DNA of 64,000 nt from an uncultured Chloroflexia bacterium. Its GTDB lineage: Bacteria > Chloroflexota > Dehalococcoidia > GIF9 > AB-539-J10. The notes under the pieces were generated by a model, which worked only from the letters and a program-made list of their open reading frames with translations, was not told the origin of the DNA and ran no database searches. Of this stretch, positions 7,990-64,000 are shown piece after piece. How positions within the stretch are numbered: the first letter of the stretch is position 1; every line of letters begins with the position of its first letter. Where the stretch lies: positions 280,769-344,768 of the forward strand of contig CAVYNS010000002.1 of NCBI GenBank assembly GCA_963769975.1, given 5' to 3'. Made by a program: the position numbers and the translations under genes.

Positions 7990-8063
7990 CGCGCCTAGAG
8001 GGATTCGAACCCACGACCCCCGGTTCCGAAGACCGGTGCTCTTGTCCGCTGAGCTATAGGCGC
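7990..8063 (-). tRNA. tRNA-Arg (anticodon TCG)
   Basis: Manual cloverleaf: acceptor GCGCCTA/TAGGCGC, anticodon stem ccggt/accgg with loop cTTCGga, T-arm GGTTCGAATCC and discriminator G. Confidence 0.8.
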
Positions 8064-8075
8064 AAAAATAAATTG

Positions 8076-8150
8076 GGGTGAACGGTGGGATTTGAACCCA
8101 CGATCTCCAGGGCCACAACCTGGCGCCTTAACCACTGGGCTACGCTCACC
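8076..8150 (-). tRNA. tRNA-His (anticodon GTG)
   Basis: Manual cloverleaf: acceptor GGTGAGC/GTTCACC, anticodon stem ccagg/cctgg with loop ttGTGgc, T-arm GGTTCAAATCC and discriminator C. Confidence 0.8.
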
Positions 8151-57301: not shown

Positions 57302-58198
57302 ATGGCAAAATCTTTTCATTACGGTGGCCAGGCAGTTATTGAGGGGGTGATGATACGGGGAAAGGAGGGCGTGGCTATATCTGTGCGTCAGCCCAATGGA
57401 GAATTAAGCATAGAAAGGCAGCCGCTGGCCAGTATATACAAAGGGCGTCTCAGAGAAATGCCTTTAATAAGAGGCATCATCGCTCTCATTGAAACCCTGG
57501 TTTTGGGCACGCAGTCATTACTTCACTCTGCTCAAGTTGCCGCGGCAGAGGAAGTAGGAGAGAAAATACCAACAGCGGTTTTATGGGGGACCGTAGCTGT
57601 GAGCCTTGCTGTGGGTGTAGCTCTCTTCTTCATGGTTCCTCTCTTTGCCACCCGCTACCTTATTGACCCCTACATCAATTCTAACTTATTGAGAAATGTC
57701 TTTGAGGGACTTATCCGTATTGGCATTTTCATCGCTTACCTCAAGTTGATAAGTTTAATACCTGATATTAAAAGAGTCTTTGCTTACCACGGAGCCGAGC
57801 ATAAAGTAGTGAATGCCTATGAAGCCGGCGTCCCTTTGGAAGTGGAGTCGGTTAAGAAATATTCTACTGCTCATGCTCGCTGCGGCACCGCCTTTCTATT
57901 TATCGTGCTCATCGTAGCTATTTTTGTCTTCGCCTTGGTTCCTCAGCCCACTTTATGGATACGCATATTGTCCCGCATAGCTCTCATTCCGGTCATCGCT
58001 GTTATTAGCTACGAGATTATGAAATTTGGGGCAAGCCATATTGATAACCCGATAGTCCGAATTCTCTTAGCCCCAGGGCTGTTGTTGCAAGCTATCACCA
58101 CCAGGGAACCTGACGATAGTCAAATAGAAGCTGCTATATCGGCACTAAATGAGGTCATCAAGATTGATGGTGCTGCTGATTCTAGCGGCAGTACATAA
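57302..58198 (+). CDS. DUF1385 domain-containing membrane-associated protein
   Basis: N-terminus MAKSFHYGGQAVIEGVMIRG and internal TM helices typical of DUF1385. Confidence 0.6.
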   Translation: MAKSFHYGGQAVIEGVMIRGKEGVAISVRQPNGELSIERQPLASIYKGRLREMPLIRGIIALIETLVLGTQSLLHSAQVAAAEEVGEKIPTAVLWGTVAVSLAVGVALFFMVPLFATRYLIDPYINSNLLRNVFEGLIRIGIFIAYLKLISLIPDIKRVFAYHGAEHKVVNAYEAGVPLEVESVKKYSTAHARCGTAFLFIVLIVAIFVFALVPQPTLWIRILSRIALIPVIAVISYEIMKFGASHIDNPIVRILLAPGLLLQAITTREPDDSQIEAAISALNEVIKIDGAADSSGST

Positions 58199-58205
58199 GG
58201 CTGTA

Positions 58206-58369
58206 TTGACAAGATAATACGGATTTGCTATTATATATAATAGCCATTGACCTTTGAGGCAGTGAGCTAAAGAACTGGATAGTTAAAAGTCCGCTTGGAT
58301 CGGCGGTGACCGAGACGGACAACAGGAGTTGTTGTGATAACCCTCTCGGTTATGTCGAGAGGGTTTTTT
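58206..58369 (+). ncRNA. Candidate cis-regulatory leader RNA (pan-motif-like riboswitch candidate) with its own promoter and an intrinsic terminator that sequesters the downstream SD
   Basis: TTGACA (58206-58211), a 17-nt spacer and TATTAT (58229-58234). About 100 nt of structured non-coding sequence follows. The terminator hairpin ccctctcg-gttatgt-cgagaggg plus TTTTTT (58341-58369) ends 5 nt before the ATG of the first gene of the pan operon. The 3' arm GAGAGGG is the only SD-like sequence. Confidence 0.45.
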
Positions 58370-58374
58370 AGTTT

Positions 58375-59343
58375 ATGGTTATGTACGGCGCTATAACGGA
58401 TGTTCCAGGAATTAAGGTCGGGCATTATACCGATAAGAAGGCAGTGACAGGCTGCACGGTAATACTTTGTGAGCCAGGGGCTGTGGCTGGCGTCGATGTC
58501 AGTGGCTCATCGCCGGGGACCAGGGAAACAGACCTGCTCCGACCGGGAAATTTAGTGGAAAGGGTTCAAGCTATCATTTTTAGTGGAGGCAGCGCCTTTG
58601 GCCTGGATGCTGCTACCGGGGTTATGAGGTATTTGGAGGAGCGAGGATTTGGTTATGAGACTAGCGCCGGGAGGGTGCCTATTGTGCCAGCCGCCATTAT
58701 TTTCGACCTGAATATAGGTGATTCTAAAATCAGGCCCGGAGCTAACGAAGGCTATCAAGCTTGCCAGGCTGCTATTAATGGCAAAGTAGCTGAGGGGTGC
58801 GTTGGCGCAGGCACCGGGGCCACAGTGGGCAAAATTCTCGGCGTAGAAAGGGCGGTTAAAAGTGGTTTGGGGACTGCCAGTCAAAAAATAGCCAGAGATG
58901 TTGTGGTAGCTGCCTTGGTGGTGGTAAATGCCGTTGGAGATGTGCTTGAACCGGGAACGGGGAAAATTCTGGCGGGACCTCGCAAGCCGGATGGAAGTGG
59001 GTTCTTATCTACATCCGAGTTATGGAAAGGCGACTTTAAGGAAGCAGTTCCACCTTTTAATACCGTAATCGGTGTAGTGGCTACCGATGCCAAACTTAGT
59101 AAAACAGAAGCAAACAAATTGGCCCACGTGGCACAGGTTGGCATTGCTCGCACTATTGACCCATGCCATACCATGTACGATGGCGATGCTTTATTCGCTC
59201 TTTCTTTAGGTGAAAAGGCAGCCGACATTAGTGCTCTGGGGGCAGCGGCTGCTGAGGTTGTCGCTGAAGCCATAGTTAGAGCAATTCAAAAGGCGGAAAC
59301 TTTAGCTGGTGTGCCAGCGGCTAAGGACATAAACAAATGTTAA
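58375..59343 (+). CDS. Peptidase S58 (DmpA/BapA family, Ntn-hydrolase aminopeptidase)
   Basis: GIKVGHYTD...GCTVIL N-terminus and a conserved Ser/Thr nucleophile region. The stop overlaps the next gene by 7 nt. Confidence 0.75.
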   Translation: MVMYGAITDVPGIKVGHYTDKKAVTGCTVILCEPGAVAGVDVSGSSPGTRETDLLRPGNLVERVQAIIFSGGSAFGLDAATGVMRYLEERGFGYETSAGRVPIVPAAIIFDLNIGDSKIRPGANEGYQACQAAINGKVAEGCVGAGTGATVGKILGVERAVKSGLGTASQKIARDVVVAALVVVNAVGDVLEPGTGKILAGPRKPDGSGFLSTSELWKGDFKEAVPPFNTVIGVVATDAKLSKTEANKLAHVAQVGIARTIDPCHTMYDGDALFALSLGEKAADISALGAAAAEVVAEAIVRAIQKAETLAGVPAAKDINKC

Positions 59344-60203
59344 AGGCAGGCTTTATTGGTGCGGGAACGACAGGCACTGCTCTGGCAGTAAGGCTTTCTC
59401 AAAAGGGATGGCCGGTGGTGGCTGTGTCCAGTCGAACTTTGTCCTCGGCACAGAGGCTAGCCGGGCGGGTGTCCAACTGCCAGGTTTATCATAAAACTCA
59501 GGAACTGGCAGACGTTGCTGAGCTGGTCTTCATCACCACTCCTGATGATGTTATAGCTCAGGTGTGCAGCGAAGTTCAGTGGCATAAAGGACAGAGCGTC
59601 GTACATTGTAGTGGTGCTCATTCCGTGGATATTCTGGAACCAGCAAAGAAACTTGGGACAGCTGTTGGCTCTTTTCATCCGTTACAGACTTTTGCCGATG
59701 TTGACCAGGCCATAGTTAACTTGCCTGGCTCTACCTTCGCTCTGGAAGCTGAAGAGCCACTATTATCAACGTTGAAGAAGTTAACACAGCTTCTGAACGG
59801 CAGCTGGGTGAAACTTAAGCCCGGGGACAAGGTGCTGTATCATGCCGCCGCCGTTTTCGCTTGTAATTATCTGGTGACCCTGGTTAAGTTGGCTCTGGAC
59901 TTGTGGCAGGACTTCGGAGTATCGTCAAAAGAGGCGACCAAGGCTTTGATGCCTTTGCTCAGAGGGACGCTAAACAATATTGACAATATCGGCTTGCCTG
60001 ACTGCCTCACCGGTCCTGTGGCCCGCGGGGATCTAGGCACCATGGAGAGGCACTTGAGCGCTCTTGAAGCACGAAGTCCTTCCTTGCTCACTACCTATAA
60101 AGAGCTAGGACTTCAGACTATTCCCATTGCTTTGGCTAAAGGCAAGGTCACTGAACAGAAGGCAGAAGAAATGAAAGCTTTACTTTCTTTGAAAAGAAAC
60201 TAA
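59337..60203 (+). CDS. Rossmann-fold NAD(P)-binding protein with a DUF2520-like C-terminal domain (putative ketopantoate reductase, PanG-like)
   Basis: N-terminus GFIGAGTTGTALAVRL (GxGxxG). Sits directly upstream of panD-panB-panC. Confidence 0.55.
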   Translation: MLKAGFIGAGTTGTALAVRLSQKGWPVVAVSSRTLSSAQRLAGRVSNCQVYHKTQELADVAELVFITTPDDVIAQVCSEVQWHKGQSVVHCSGAHSVDILEPAKKLGTAVGSFHPLQTFADVDQAIVNLPGSTFALEAEEPLLSTLKKLTQLLNGSWVKLKPGDKVLYHAAAVFACNYLVTLVKLALDLWQDFGVSSKEATKALMPLLRGTLNNIDNIGLPDCLTGPVARGDLGTMERHLSALEARSPSLLTTYKELGLQTIPIALAKGKVTEQKAEEMKALLSLKRN

Positions 60204-60235: not shown

Positions 60236-60646
60236 ATGAGAACTATGCTGAAAAGTAAAATCCACCGAGCCCGGGTTACTCAAGTCGATTTGGATTATGA
60301 AGGCAGTATCACTATTGACCGGTCCCTCATGGAAGCCAGCGACATCTTGCCCTTCGAAAGGGTAGAGGTACTAAACGTTAACAATGGCGCCAGGTTCAGC
60401 ACTTACGCTATCGAAGGTGAGGCGAATTCGGGGATTATTGGTGTAAATGGTGCTGCCGCCAGACTGGTGGCCAAGGGCGACATAGTTATCATCCTATCGT
60501 ATTGCCAGGTTTCTGATGATGAGGCAATCGGCATAACCCCCAGCATAGTTCGTGTGGACAGTCAAAACAGGATTGTTGAGCCTTTGCCTATGGTTCCTCA
60601 ATGGGAAAAAATTCAGGAGTCAGTAGCCACTATGGGTGACCTTTGA
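60236..60646 (+). CDS. panD: Aspartate 1-decarboxylase (pyruvoyl-dependent)
   Basis: [25 protein letters not shown], with the processing site at ...GS. Confidence 0.9.
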
Positions 60647-60695: not shown

Positions 60696-61532
60696 ATGCG
60701 AGTTACTATTACTGAGATAAAAGAGATGAAGCAAAAGAAAGAAAAGATACCTATGCTTACCGCTTATGACTATGTGACGGCCAAGATAGTTGATGAGGCT
60801 GGTGTGCCTTTGATATTGGTTGGGGATAGCTTAGGGAACGTGATATTGGGCTATGAGTCAACTATCCCGGTGACTATGGAGGAGATGCTTCATCATACCA
60901 AAGCTGTAGTGAGAGGAGCTAAGAAGGCCTTAATAATAGGCGATATGCCGTTTATGACTTATCATATCAGCGTCTCCGATGCTTTACATAATGCAGCAAG
61001 GTTTATTCAGGAAGGAGGGACACAGGGGGTGAAGTTGGAGGGGGGCGAAGTCGTTGCTGAGAAAGTCAGACGCCTTGTTGACTGTGGCATCCCAGTCATG
61101 GGACATATTGGGCTTACTCCACAATCCATACATCAGTTGGGAGGGTTTAAGGTACAGGGTAAGGTGGTGGAAGTAGCCAAAAAGTTGCTTAACGATGCTC
61201 GTATTCTGGAGGAAGCTGGCGCTTTTGCTGTCGTTCTGGAATGCATACCAGCCCCTCTTTCCAAGCTAATTACTCAAAAGCTGGCTATCCCCACGATTGG
61301 CATCGGCGCCGGACCCGATTGCGATGGTCAAGTCTTGGTAATCAGCGATATGCTGGGTCTTTATACCGAGTTCGTGCCCAAGCATGTCAAGCAATATGCC
61401 AGGTTAGCCGGAGAAATTAAAACTGCTGTTTCTAATTACATATCTGAAGTTAAATCTCGTAGCTTCCCCGCTAACGAGCAGAGCTATACTATGGATGAGA
61501 GCCTCGTCAAACAGCTAAAAGCCGAAAGCTAG
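60696..61532 (+). CDS. panB: 3-methyl-2-oxobutanoate hydroxymethyltransferase
   Basis: LTAYDY..LVGDSLG and other PanB motifs. Confidence 0.9.
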   Translation: MRVTITEIKEMKQKKEKIPMLTAYDYVTAKIVDEAGVPLILVGDSLGNVILGYESTIPVTMEEMLHHTKAVVRGAKKALIIGDMPFMTYHISVSDALHNAARFIQEGGTQGVKLEGGEVVAEKVRRLVDCGIPVMGHIGLTPQSIHQLGGFKVQGKVVEVAKKLLNDARILEEAGAFAVVLECIPAPLSKLITQKLAIPTIGIGAGPDCDGQVLVISDMLGLYTEFVPKHVKQYARLAGEIKTAVSNYISEVKSRSFPANEQSYTMDESLVKQLKAES

Positions 61533-61538
61533 CGGTGT

Positions 61539-62372
61539 ATGCAGGTAGTAAAGACCATACCCGAGATAAGGGCGTTAAGGCAGAAACTCAGTGGCACGGT
61601 GGGCTTCGTTCCCACTATGGGCTATCTTCACGAAGGTCATCTGGCTTTAGTAAAGCAGGCCAGGATAGAAAACTCCACCGTTATCGTCAGCATTTATGTT
61701 AACCCCACCCAATTTGGTCCCAGGGAGGATTTTGGCGACTATCCCCGGGACCTCGATCGTGACCTGGAGCTGTTGCGGAAAGGAGGGGCGGATATCGTCC
61801 TTGTCCCCTCCGATGAAGAGATGTACCCACCTGAATCTAGTAGCTGGGTGGATGTGGAGAAGGTGACCGAGCGACTTGAGGGAGCAGCTCGTCCAGGTCA
61901 TTTCAGGGGCGTAGCCACGGTAGTGGCCAAGCTGTTCAACATTGTCCAGCCATCACGAGCTTACTTCGGGCAGAAAGATGCCCAGCAGGTGGTGGTCATT
62001 AAGAGAATGGTGGCTGACCTCAACATGGGGGTGGAGATCGTGGTTGTGCCTACGGTCAGGGAGAGCGATGGTCTGGCTATGAGCAGTCGCAATGTTTACC
62101 TCAGTTCTAAAGGGCGCCAGGCAGCCACAATATTGTTCAAGGCCCTTACGTTGGCTCGGCAATTAAAGAGGAGTGGGGAAAAAGATGCTGAAAAGATTCG
62201 CCGGCAAATGATCACACTTATCCAGAAAGAACCTCTGGCTCAAATTGACTATGTCAGCATTGCTGATGCCGAAACACTAGAAGAATTGAACTTGCTCGAC
62301 CGCCCGGCCGTGGCTTCCTTAGCCGTCAGGATAGGTAAAACGCGGTTGATAGATAACCTGCCTCTAGAATAA
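61539..62372 (+). CDS. panC: Pantoate--beta-alanine ligase
   Basis: PTMGYLHEGHLALV (HIGH-like) and the KMSKS-like region. Confidence 0.9.
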   Translation: MQVVKTIPEIRALRQKLSGTVGFVPTMGYLHEGHLALVKQARIENSTVIVSIYVNPTQFGPREDFGDYPRDLDRDLELLRKGGADIVLVPSDEEMYPPESSSWVDVEKVTERLEGAARPGHFRGVATVVAKLFNIVQPSRAYFGQKDAQQVVVIKRMVADLNMGVEIVVVPTVRESDGLAMSSRNVYLSSKGRQAATILFKALTLARQLKRSGEKDAEKIRRQMITLIQKEPLAQIDYVSIADAETLEELNLLDRPAVASLAVRIGKTRLIDNLPLE

Positions 62373-62595
62373 GTGCCTGGTGTGTCATTGTGAGGCTCTT
62401 CTTATCTGTCGTTTCAAGGTTTTTCTTCTTTTCAGCACGTTTTGAATGAATCAGGATTTGAGTAATGTAGAATTGCATGAATAGGACAAGGCTATTATTG
62501 AATCATGTTGACTTGTGATGAATAATAGAAGATGTTATAGTACGTGCCACCCAAACAAGCAATGGTTCAATTAAGATAATCAGGAGGAGCTAAAT

Positions 62596-63189
62596 ATGGC
62601 GTTAAATTCTGAATCCGGAAATACAATTTTGAGGGTGTGGCTTCTGTTGCACCGAGTCCGCGACGCGATTTCTCTGTGCGAGGATTCAATATATGGGGAA
62701 TATGGACTTACTATGGAGCAGTTCGCAGTGCTTGCATCTTTGAAATCCCGCGGTGGTTCTTTAAGGCCAACTGACCTAGCCTCGATTCTAGAACGTAGCC
62801 CGAACAGCGTCAGTATGCTGGTTGACCGCATGGTCAAAGCTGGTCTGGTCAAGAGGACAAGAGACAGGATAGACCGCAGAGTAGTAAATGTGTCTGCCGC
62901 CAACAAGGGGAAGGACGCCATTGGACCGGCAAGTCTAGCGGGCTGGGAGTTTATCCAGAAAATCCTGTCACCGCTATCAGATAAGGACAAGCATGCCCTT
63001 GCCAGTATGCTTGAGACAATAAAAGGTAAGGCAGTTGGATACCTAAATTCCGAAGAGGATGTGGTGGAAATCATTAAAAACAGTTTCACAAACCAGCCTG
63101 GTTTATATGAACGGATGGTCAAGAACGTTTTTCCCTCCACTCCTCAAGCCCAACGTCAGGGTAGTAGAAAGAAAAGGGCCAAGGGGTAA
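62596..63189 (+). CDS. MarR family transcriptional regulator
   Basis: Winged-HTH core (LTMEQFAVLASL...LRPTDLASIL..S.VS.LVDRMVKAGLVKRTRD..DRR). Confidence 0.75.
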   Translation: MALNSESGNTILRVWLLLHRVRDAISLCEDSIYGEYGLTMEQFAVLASLKSRGGSLRPTDLASILERSPNSVSMLVDRMVKAGLVKRTRDRIDRRVVNVSAANKGKDAIGPASLAGWEFIQKILSPLSDKDKHALASMLETIKGKAVGYLNSEEDVVEIIKNSFTNQPGLYERMVKNVFPSTPQAQRQGSRKKRAKG

Positions 63190-63308: not shown

Positions 63309-63343
63309 TTGACAACCAAAAAGCCCTGCTGTATAATGAGCAT
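63309..63343 (+). promoter_or_regulatory. Consensus sigma70 promoter (TTGACA-N17-TATAAT) for the 23S rRNA gene
   Basis: TTGACA at 63309-63314, a 17-nt spacer and TATAAT at 63332-63337. Confidence 0.65.

Positions 63344-63399: not shown

Positions 63400-64000
<601 letters not shown>

Follow-up and report, generated by a model that had tools for sequence, protein, structure and literature searches.

A pan-motif leader with a predicted antiterminator-based attenuator upstream of the pantothenate operon of an uncultured Dehalococcoidia bacterium

The window analysed here is a 64,000-nucleotide (nt) stretch of DNA from an uncultured Chloroflexia bacterium of the Dehalococcoidia (GenBank assembly GCA_963769975.1, contig CAVYNS010000002.1, positions 280,769 to 344,768 of the forward strand). 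It contains a pantothenate operon that encodes, in order, an S58 (DmpA-like) peptidase, a PanG-like reductase, PanD, PanB and PanC, a gene content that was proposed from the sequence and that Pfam and NCBIfam searches confirm. A first-pass annotation had also read the short leader of this operon as a candidate riboswitch resembling the pan motif, an RNA family catalogued in Rfam as RF01749. We find that the leader carries a pan-motif RNA whose second hairpin shares sequence with a predicted antiterminator, and that the region probably acts as an effector-dependent transcription attenuator of the pantothenate operon. The elements of the leader, numbered from the first nucleotide of the window, are as follows.

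58206-58211, + strand: -35 hexamer TTGACA, a match to the consensus
58226-58234, + strand: extended -10 element, TGc and then TATTAT (58229-58234), with a spacer of 17 nt to the -35 hexamer
58242-58268, + strand: P1, pan hairpin 1, 10 bp with bulged A58250 (5' strand) and A58265 (3' strand), as placed by the Rfam alignment
58269-58290, + strand: A-rich, poorly conserved linker of 22 nt that separates P1 and P2
58291-58318, + strand: P2, pan hairpin 2, 11 bp with bulged A58299 and A58315, the proposed anti-antiterminator
58319-58332, + strand: P3, a small hairpin (ACAAC / GUUGU) enclosed by the antiterminator
58307-58352, + strand: predicted antiterminator helix, in which U58307-G58318 (P2 3' arm) pairs with C58341-A58352 (terminator 5' arm)
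58339-58369, + strand: intrinsic terminator, with a 12-bp stem (58339-58365), a 3-nt loop and T6 (58364-58369)
58357-58363, + strand: GAGAGGG, a Shine-Dalgarno (SD)-like sequence inside the terminator 3' arm

The pan motif had been suggested from the location of the leader, and a search with Rfam bore this out. RF01749 matches positions 58242-58322 with 40.5 bits, above its gathering score of 36.2, and the match covers model positions 1-92 of 92 (E = 0.0015 in the 64-kb window and 7e-6 in a 301-nt region). All stem positions of P1 and P2 are paired except for one bulged adenine per strand, and both hairpins are laid out alike on each strand (5 bp, a bulged A and then ~3 bp), with a conserved wobble, U58296-G58312, in P2. 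The calculated stability of P2 is -12.6 kcal/mol. Tandem hairpins are usual for the pan motif outside the delta-proteobacteria (Weinberg et al. 2010, PMC2864571), and the known taxonomic range of the motif comprises Chloroflexi, Firmicutes and delta-proteobacteria. Furthermore, the 2010 seed alignment includes three Dehalococcoides genomes with a nearly identical P2 (CCGCUUGGAUCG...CGGCCGAGACGG). The window leader resembles the family in its full-length match, in its two tandem hairpins with two bulged adenines each, in its position in the 5' untranslated region of a panB/panC/panD operon and in its Chloroflexi (Dehalococcoidia) host. Score, bulged adenines, tandem hairpins, downstream pan genes, conservation and taxonomic range all agree, and by sequence and predicted fold the 58242-58322 element is a pan-motif RNA, a routine member of a catalogued family from a class already recorded for it. 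The leader would have been revealed by a standard Rfam scan, and its presence is hence no discovery; the annotation of a pan-motif leader for this pantothenate operon can be made confidently.

Other assignments of the leader were considered and rejected. Rfam also returned the PyrR binding site (RF00515; 24.3 bits against a threshold of 54, E = 0.22) and the L10 leader (19.1 bits against 44), and both matches are driven by the terminator. A leader peptide was discarded since the sole ATG within the leader (58352) lacks an SD sequence and is not conserved, and a gene on the opposite strand was discarded since its 52-codon open reading frame (58267-58425) overlies the conserved RNA structure.

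The promoter that had been proposed upstream of this element (TTGACA-N17-TATTAT, 58206-58234) holds up well. It matches the sigma-70 consensus at 11/12 positions and carries a TGn extension; in the 6.5 kb scanned, the only other site with a match of at least 11/12 is that upstream of the 23S rRNA gene. Transcription is predicted to start at ~58242, about where P1 begins. This would give a leader of ~97 nt from the predicted start to the base of the terminator, in line with the earlier estimate of about 100 nt of non-coding RNA, and this leader folds much better than its dinucleotide shuffles (z = -4.5; 0/200 shuffles equally good). A gene for a protein with a domain of unknown function (DUF1385; 57302-58198) lies upstream, stops 8 nt short of the -35 hexamer and has no terminator of its own. 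Transcripts that run on from this gene would also encounter the pan leader and its terminator.

Conservation of the unit was assessed in related genomes. A search of genomes with the S58 protein as query yielded 35 loci, in which the relatives of the window are uncultured Dehalococcoidia, and pairs were counted over 25 orthologous leaders. RF01749 scores above its gathering threshold, at the same position, in 22/24 of the Dehalococcoidia orthologous loci. The whole unit of -35, spacer, -10, P1, P2 and terminator is kept in 25/25 leaders; each has a TTGAC[A/G] -35 hexamer, 17-nt spacing and a TAnnnT -10 element, and the distance from the -10 element to the first hairpin is fixed at 7-8 nt. P1, P2 and the terminator were also recovered by an unbiased RNAalifold consensus fold, so the expectation that structure would be conserved in orthologous leaders was borne out. 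Over the 25 leaders, 96% of P1 cells, 100% of P2 cells and 97% of terminator cells are paired. P1 shows changes from U-G to C-G, and two terminator pairs are changed on both sides. P3 is paired in 82% of cells, with both-sided changes at 3/5 of its pairs.

The first-pass annotation had described a canonical intrinsic terminator, and this too stands. Its stem contains 6 G-C pairs (core CCCTCTCG at 58341-58348 with CGAGAGGG at 58356-58363) and has a calculated stability of -15.4 kcal/mol, and no other strong terminator-like site was found in the 6.5-kb region scanned. The 3' arm contains GAGAGGG, which had been named as the only SD sequence for the first gene. It is indeed the sole purine-rich, SD-like stretch before that gene, while its assignment as the SD is tentative because the start codon is ambiguous and the spacing is either 11 nt (to the ATG at 58375) or 17 nt (to the ATG at 58381). 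The first start, at 58375, is ATG, GTG or CTG among orthologues (GTG/CTG in L014, L016 and L020), and the second ATG, two codons on, is invariant in them. Neighbouring genes have strong SD sequences a few nt 5' of their start codons.

Stepwise folding of the transcript predicts that P2 and the terminator are connected by a third, mutually exclusive helix. When the transcript extends to ~58340, its minimum-energy fold contains P2; when it ends at 58352-58360, an antiterminator has taken the place of P2; and once the terminator 3' arm is complete, P2 returns together with the terminator. The antiterminator pairing consists of 9 bp, a C.C mismatch and 2 bp, encloses P3 and has a calculated stability of -13.1 kcal/mol. 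The antiterminator thus shares the P2 3' arm with P2 and the terminator 5' arm with the terminator. Among the 25 leaders, the antiterminator is paired in 95% of cells, mostly through invariant columns, and the leaders are so similar (82% mean column identity) that they are too alike for a real covariation test of this helix. Within the terminator, A-to-G changes occur in the 3' arm and the 5' arm hardly varies, as would be expected if the 5' arm had to pair with two partners.

We propose a mechanism that follows from these competing helices. Transcription would start at ~58242 from the conserved sigma-70-type promoter, and the bulged-A hairpins P1 and P2 would be the first to fold. As the terminator 5' arm (58341-58352) emerges, it could displace the 5' strand of P2 and capture the 3' strand (58307-58318), which would form the antiterminator. 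In this ON state, polymerase would read through and GAGAGGG would be left single-stranded for translation. In the OFF state, an effector would keep P2 closed, no antiterminator would form, and the terminator (58339-58369) would end transcription to give a transcript of ~128 nt. P2 would thus serve as an anti-antiterminator (i.e., its stabilization would cause termination and would hide the SD-like GAGAGGG within the paired terminator arms). Because the P2 3' arm competes in the antiterminator and the antiterminator competes with the terminator, effector binding to P2 is expected to switch the operon off, which would amount to feedback repression by pantothenate or coenzyme A (CoA) status, and the effect would probably fall on both transcription and translation. 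This logic of anti-antiterminator, antiterminator and terminator is that of the PyrR-dependent pyr attenuators (RF00515), although the window leader precedes pantothenate rather than pyrimidine genes and has no PyrR-like binding loop.

To look for the same competition in pan leaders of other lineages, we scanned metagenomes for a pattern of the Rfam-consensus P2. Of the 120 stretches obtained, we kept the 58 that have panB, panC or panD 60-360 nt downstream on the same strand; those discarded were mostly chance matches inside GC-rich coding DNA. An intrinsic terminator lies between P2 and the gene in 33/58 of these leaders. When the window leader is added to these 33, pairing of the P2 3' arm and its 8-nt tail with the terminator 5' arm has a mean duplex energy of -15.2 kcal/mol over the 34 leaders, compared with -10.6 kcal/mol for shuffled arms and -6.9 kcal/mol for a P2 5'-arm decoy. 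For single loci, the z-scores relative to mononucleotide shuffles are modest, with a median of -2.0, since a purine-rich arm will pair with a pyrimidine-rich one through base composition alone; the comparison therefore rests on tests that pool the leaders, that include the decoy or that work at the level of families. In a mid-transcription test (where only the terminator 5' arm and loop have been transcribed), an antiterminator of 6 bp or more is part of the minimum-energy fold in 23/32 distinct leaders, compared with 28% of controls that keep the terminator and shuffle the arm sequence. At the level of families, the antiterminator fold is present in 17/26, compared with 5.0 expected (Poisson-binomial P ~2e-8). 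The 26 families come from greedy clustering at 75% identity; single-linkage clustering at 65% lumped the leaders into just 4 groups and was abandoned.

The complementarity is kept although the tails differ. AAGG faces CCUU in one case, CAGU faces ACUG in another and UGGGACGG faces CCGUCUCA in a third, and the corresponding pair in the window is ACCGAGACGG with CCCUCUCGGU. In most other lineages the antiterminator takes just the basal 3 bp of P2 and a 4-nt tail, whereas in the lineage of the window the whole P2 3' arm is used, bulged A58315 included. Dehalococcoides 195 (sequence from the flanked 2010 alignment, NC_002936.3 735918-736412) passes through the same three folding stages, with a downstream hairpin of different sequence and no clear U-tract. 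These results demonstrate computationally that the leader belongs to the family, that its structures are conserved and that its mutually exclusive pairings recur across lineages.

In Dehalococcoides proper, a 15-bp hairpin follows the pan leader, and the first gene of the operon is the PanG-like reductase; the S58 gene that opens the operon in the window is absent. The head of the operon thus differs within the class, and the read-out possibly does too. A different arrangement is seen in leaders with a single hairpin and no terminator upstream of panB, which share a conserved GGCAUCUUACUC...GGAGAAGAUAGCC-AUG segment in the ~70 nt after the P2 match (L046, L049, L054, L065, L066, L070 and L135). 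Its sequence suggests a hairpin that would sequester the SD and start codon, and hence a translational platform of the pan motif.

The same data bear on two explanations that do without an RNA switch. In the first, the 5' hairpins would simply protect the mRNA from decay that depends on the 5' end, and the terminator would either be a constitutive, leaky attenuator or insulate the operon from transcription that runs on from the DUF1385 gene. P1 does begin where the transcript is predicted to start, the DUF1385 gene, 8 nt away from the -35 hexamer, does lack a terminator, and the terminator state is strongly favoured at equilibrium. We nonetheless consider this explanation improbable: the bulged adenines and their flanking pairs are conserved in sequence across phyla, always with pan genes, and the P2 3' arm stays complementary to the terminator 5' arm through different sequences, far above chance. 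Less probable still, to the point that we give it hardly any weight, is that the hairpins are palindromic operators read at the level of DNA by a transcription factor, for example by the MarR-family protein encoded after panC (62596-63189). An operator would be well placed, as P1 overlaps the predicted transcription start and such a gene is at hand, yet the conserved G-U wobbles (U58296-G58312, and the U-G that alternates with C-G in P1) and the asymmetric bulges are sensible only in RNA. Moreover, the motif is strand-specific relative to the pan genes in 58/58 metagenomic leaders, and the element exceeds the threshold of a covariance model built on RNA structure.

Several observations weigh against the effector-dependent attenuator that we favour. 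At full length, the state with P2 and terminator is much preferred over the antiterminator state (-41 versus -27 kcal/mol), so read-through would depend on kinetics. In the Dehalococcoidia set, a change from UA to CG occurs at a single antiterminator pair, in three sequences, and 9/26 of the metagenomic families do not adopt the antiterminator as their minimum-energy fold. The SD assignment is uncertain owing to the ambiguous start codon, and all of the structural evidence consists of thermodynamic prediction and comparative analysis.

The genes of the operon and their assignments are as follows.

58375-59343, + strand: Peptidase_S58 (DmpA-like), first gene of the operon (Pfam E = 7e-56); an alternative start at 58381 is possible
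59337-60203, + strand: oxidoreductase with Rossmann-like and DUF2520 domains (Pfam), a candidate PanG-type ketopantoate reductase
60236-60646, + strand: panD, aspartate 1-decarboxylase (Pfam; NCBIfam TIGR00223 above cut-off)
60696-61532, + strand: panB, ketopantoate hydroxymethyltransferase (Pfam, NCBIfam)
61539-62372, + strand: panC, pantoate-beta-alanine ligase (Pfam, NCBIfam)

The S58 peptidase heads the pan operon in all of the Dehalococcoidia relatives. Distant homologues (46-57% identity) lie directly 5' of panB on a Symbiobacteriaceae contig (L028, 3001-3918 and ~4085) and directly 5' of panC on an Actinomycetota contig (L033, 3001-3972 and ~4093), and we can only guess at a role for the peptidase in beta-alanine supply or in PanD maturation. 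The second gene product is not named by any NCBIfam model and resembles the Francisella type of PanG; DUF2520, FTT1388 and the PanG of Francisella have been linked (PMC4572677). A second protein named PanG, YkpB of B. subtilis, is a paralogue of the PanE family that was renamed in 2024 and is unrelated to Francisella PanG. Downstream of the operon and in the same orientation, 224 nt separate panC from the MarR-family regulator gene, which has promoter-like sites of its own at 62498-62541. Farther on, a promoter that matches the consensus at 12/12 positions (TTGACA-17-TATAAT, 63309-63337) lies ~72 nt 5' of the start of the 23S rRNA gene (63409-64000). The 23S gene appears to be transcribed apart from a 16S rRNA gene because none was found in the 63 kb upstream of it. 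Two neighbouring tRNA genes lie at 7990-8149 on the - strand.

The nature of the effector determines whether the leader can be called a riboswitch. The first-pass annotation had proposed a transcription-terminating riboswitch, and the part of that proposal that stands is the architecture, an attenuator that is OFF on binding and whose antiterminator is in competition with motif and terminator alike. Direct metabolite sensing, which the term also implies, is not established; probing was negative and the discoverers proposed protein binding, so the name riboswitch is unproven. The overlap of the expression platform with the sensor domain is expected of a riboswitch and is equally compatible with a protein effector. 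Weighing all of this, we give a protein that acts in trans on the bulged-A helix about an even chance of being the effector and a small metabolite a clearly smaller one, with the rest left to some other effector or to none.

In the paper that described the motif, a dimeric protein-binding motif was favoured (Weinberg et al. 2010, PMC2864571). In-line probing in that study of a single-hairpin pan RNA from Geobacter revealed no response to 1 mM pantothenate, CoA or beta-alanine, a result for which the authors gave caveats on the probing constructs. Reviews of 2022 list no riboswitch for CoA or pantothenate, and CoA has repeatedly been named as a conspicuously missing ligand. In the searchable literature through 2026 we found no report of a ligand or binding protein for pan or of regulation through panBCD leaders, and after 2010 the motif is mentioned only as Rfam-based annotation in transcriptome papers.

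A protein-dependent attenuator, in which a trans-acting and probably dimeric RNA-binding protein would lock P2 through its bulged-A helices in the manner of PyrR, falls a little short of an even chance in our judgement. It is the discoverers' own interpretation, and it agrees with the negative probing of metabolites. The strands of each hairpin are laid out in the same way, and the conserved pairs between the bulges would suit recognition through a widened groove. Gene neighbourhoods are less helpful to this reading: when we clustered the genes around 55 pan leaders, only PanC, PanB and PanD recurred, and no dedicated regulator gene was found repeatedly near these leaders, so that no regulator stands out as the candidate, though one may be encoded elsewhere. 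In operons with enough sequence, panC is present in 27/27, panB in 17 and panD in 16. Because panC is the only gene present in every pan-motif operon, we speculate that an operon enzyme, homodimeric PanC, could act autogenously, an idea without direct support. The argument from a dimer is weakened by the many lineages in which a single hairpin suffices, and the likeness to PyrR is one of logic, the match to its binding site being far below threshold (24.3 versus 54 bits) and terminator-driven.

A true riboswitch, in which the pan hairpins would bind a metabolite of the pantothenate/CoA pathway, perhaps cooperatively in tandem, and thereby stabilize P2 and cause termination, strikes us as possible but rather unlikely. 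The association of the motif exclusively with pan genes across several phyla argues for it, as do the several types of platform (terminators, and apparent sequestration of the SD and start codon in terminator-less leaders), the absence of a regulator gene that recurs beside the motif and an architecture that is that of a classical OFF riboswitch. The pfl and yjdF motifs reportedly also gave negative results in the same 2010 supplement and had ligands assigned later. Tandem simple hairpins can be riboswitches, as guanidine-II (mini-ykkC) illustrates. Like pan, guanidine-II has two simple tandem hairpins with a variable linker upstream of a narrow set of genes, and it was initially hard to tell from a protein-binding site; unlike pan, it conserves kissing ACGR loops, whereas pan conserves bulged adenines and stem pairs and its loops vary. 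Against a riboswitch, to the discoverers, a dimeric architecture this simple pointed to protein binding, and a helix with two single-nucleotide bulges would seem to offer little obvious pocket. Validation is likewise absent from the searchable literature through 2026 despite the occurrence of the pan motif in B. subtilis. More doubtful by a small step is the bolder suggestion that pan is the missing riboswitch of the pantothenate/CoA branch, and that its ligand lies beyond those probed or that the tandem form is required; pantoate, ketopantoate, 4'-phosphopantothenate, 4'-phosphopantetheine or acyl-CoA might then be the ligand. If this were true, the arrangement of P2, antiterminator and terminator would give a direct read-out of the ligand as termination at ~58369.

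Sixteen years on from the description of the pan motif, the searchable literature reports no effector for it. What the present analysis adds to the family is an antiterminator-based expression platform, defined across lineages, and this platform offers an assay by which either a metabolite or a protein effector could be recognized, namely a terminated transcript of ~128 nt as opposed to read-through into the pantothenate genes.

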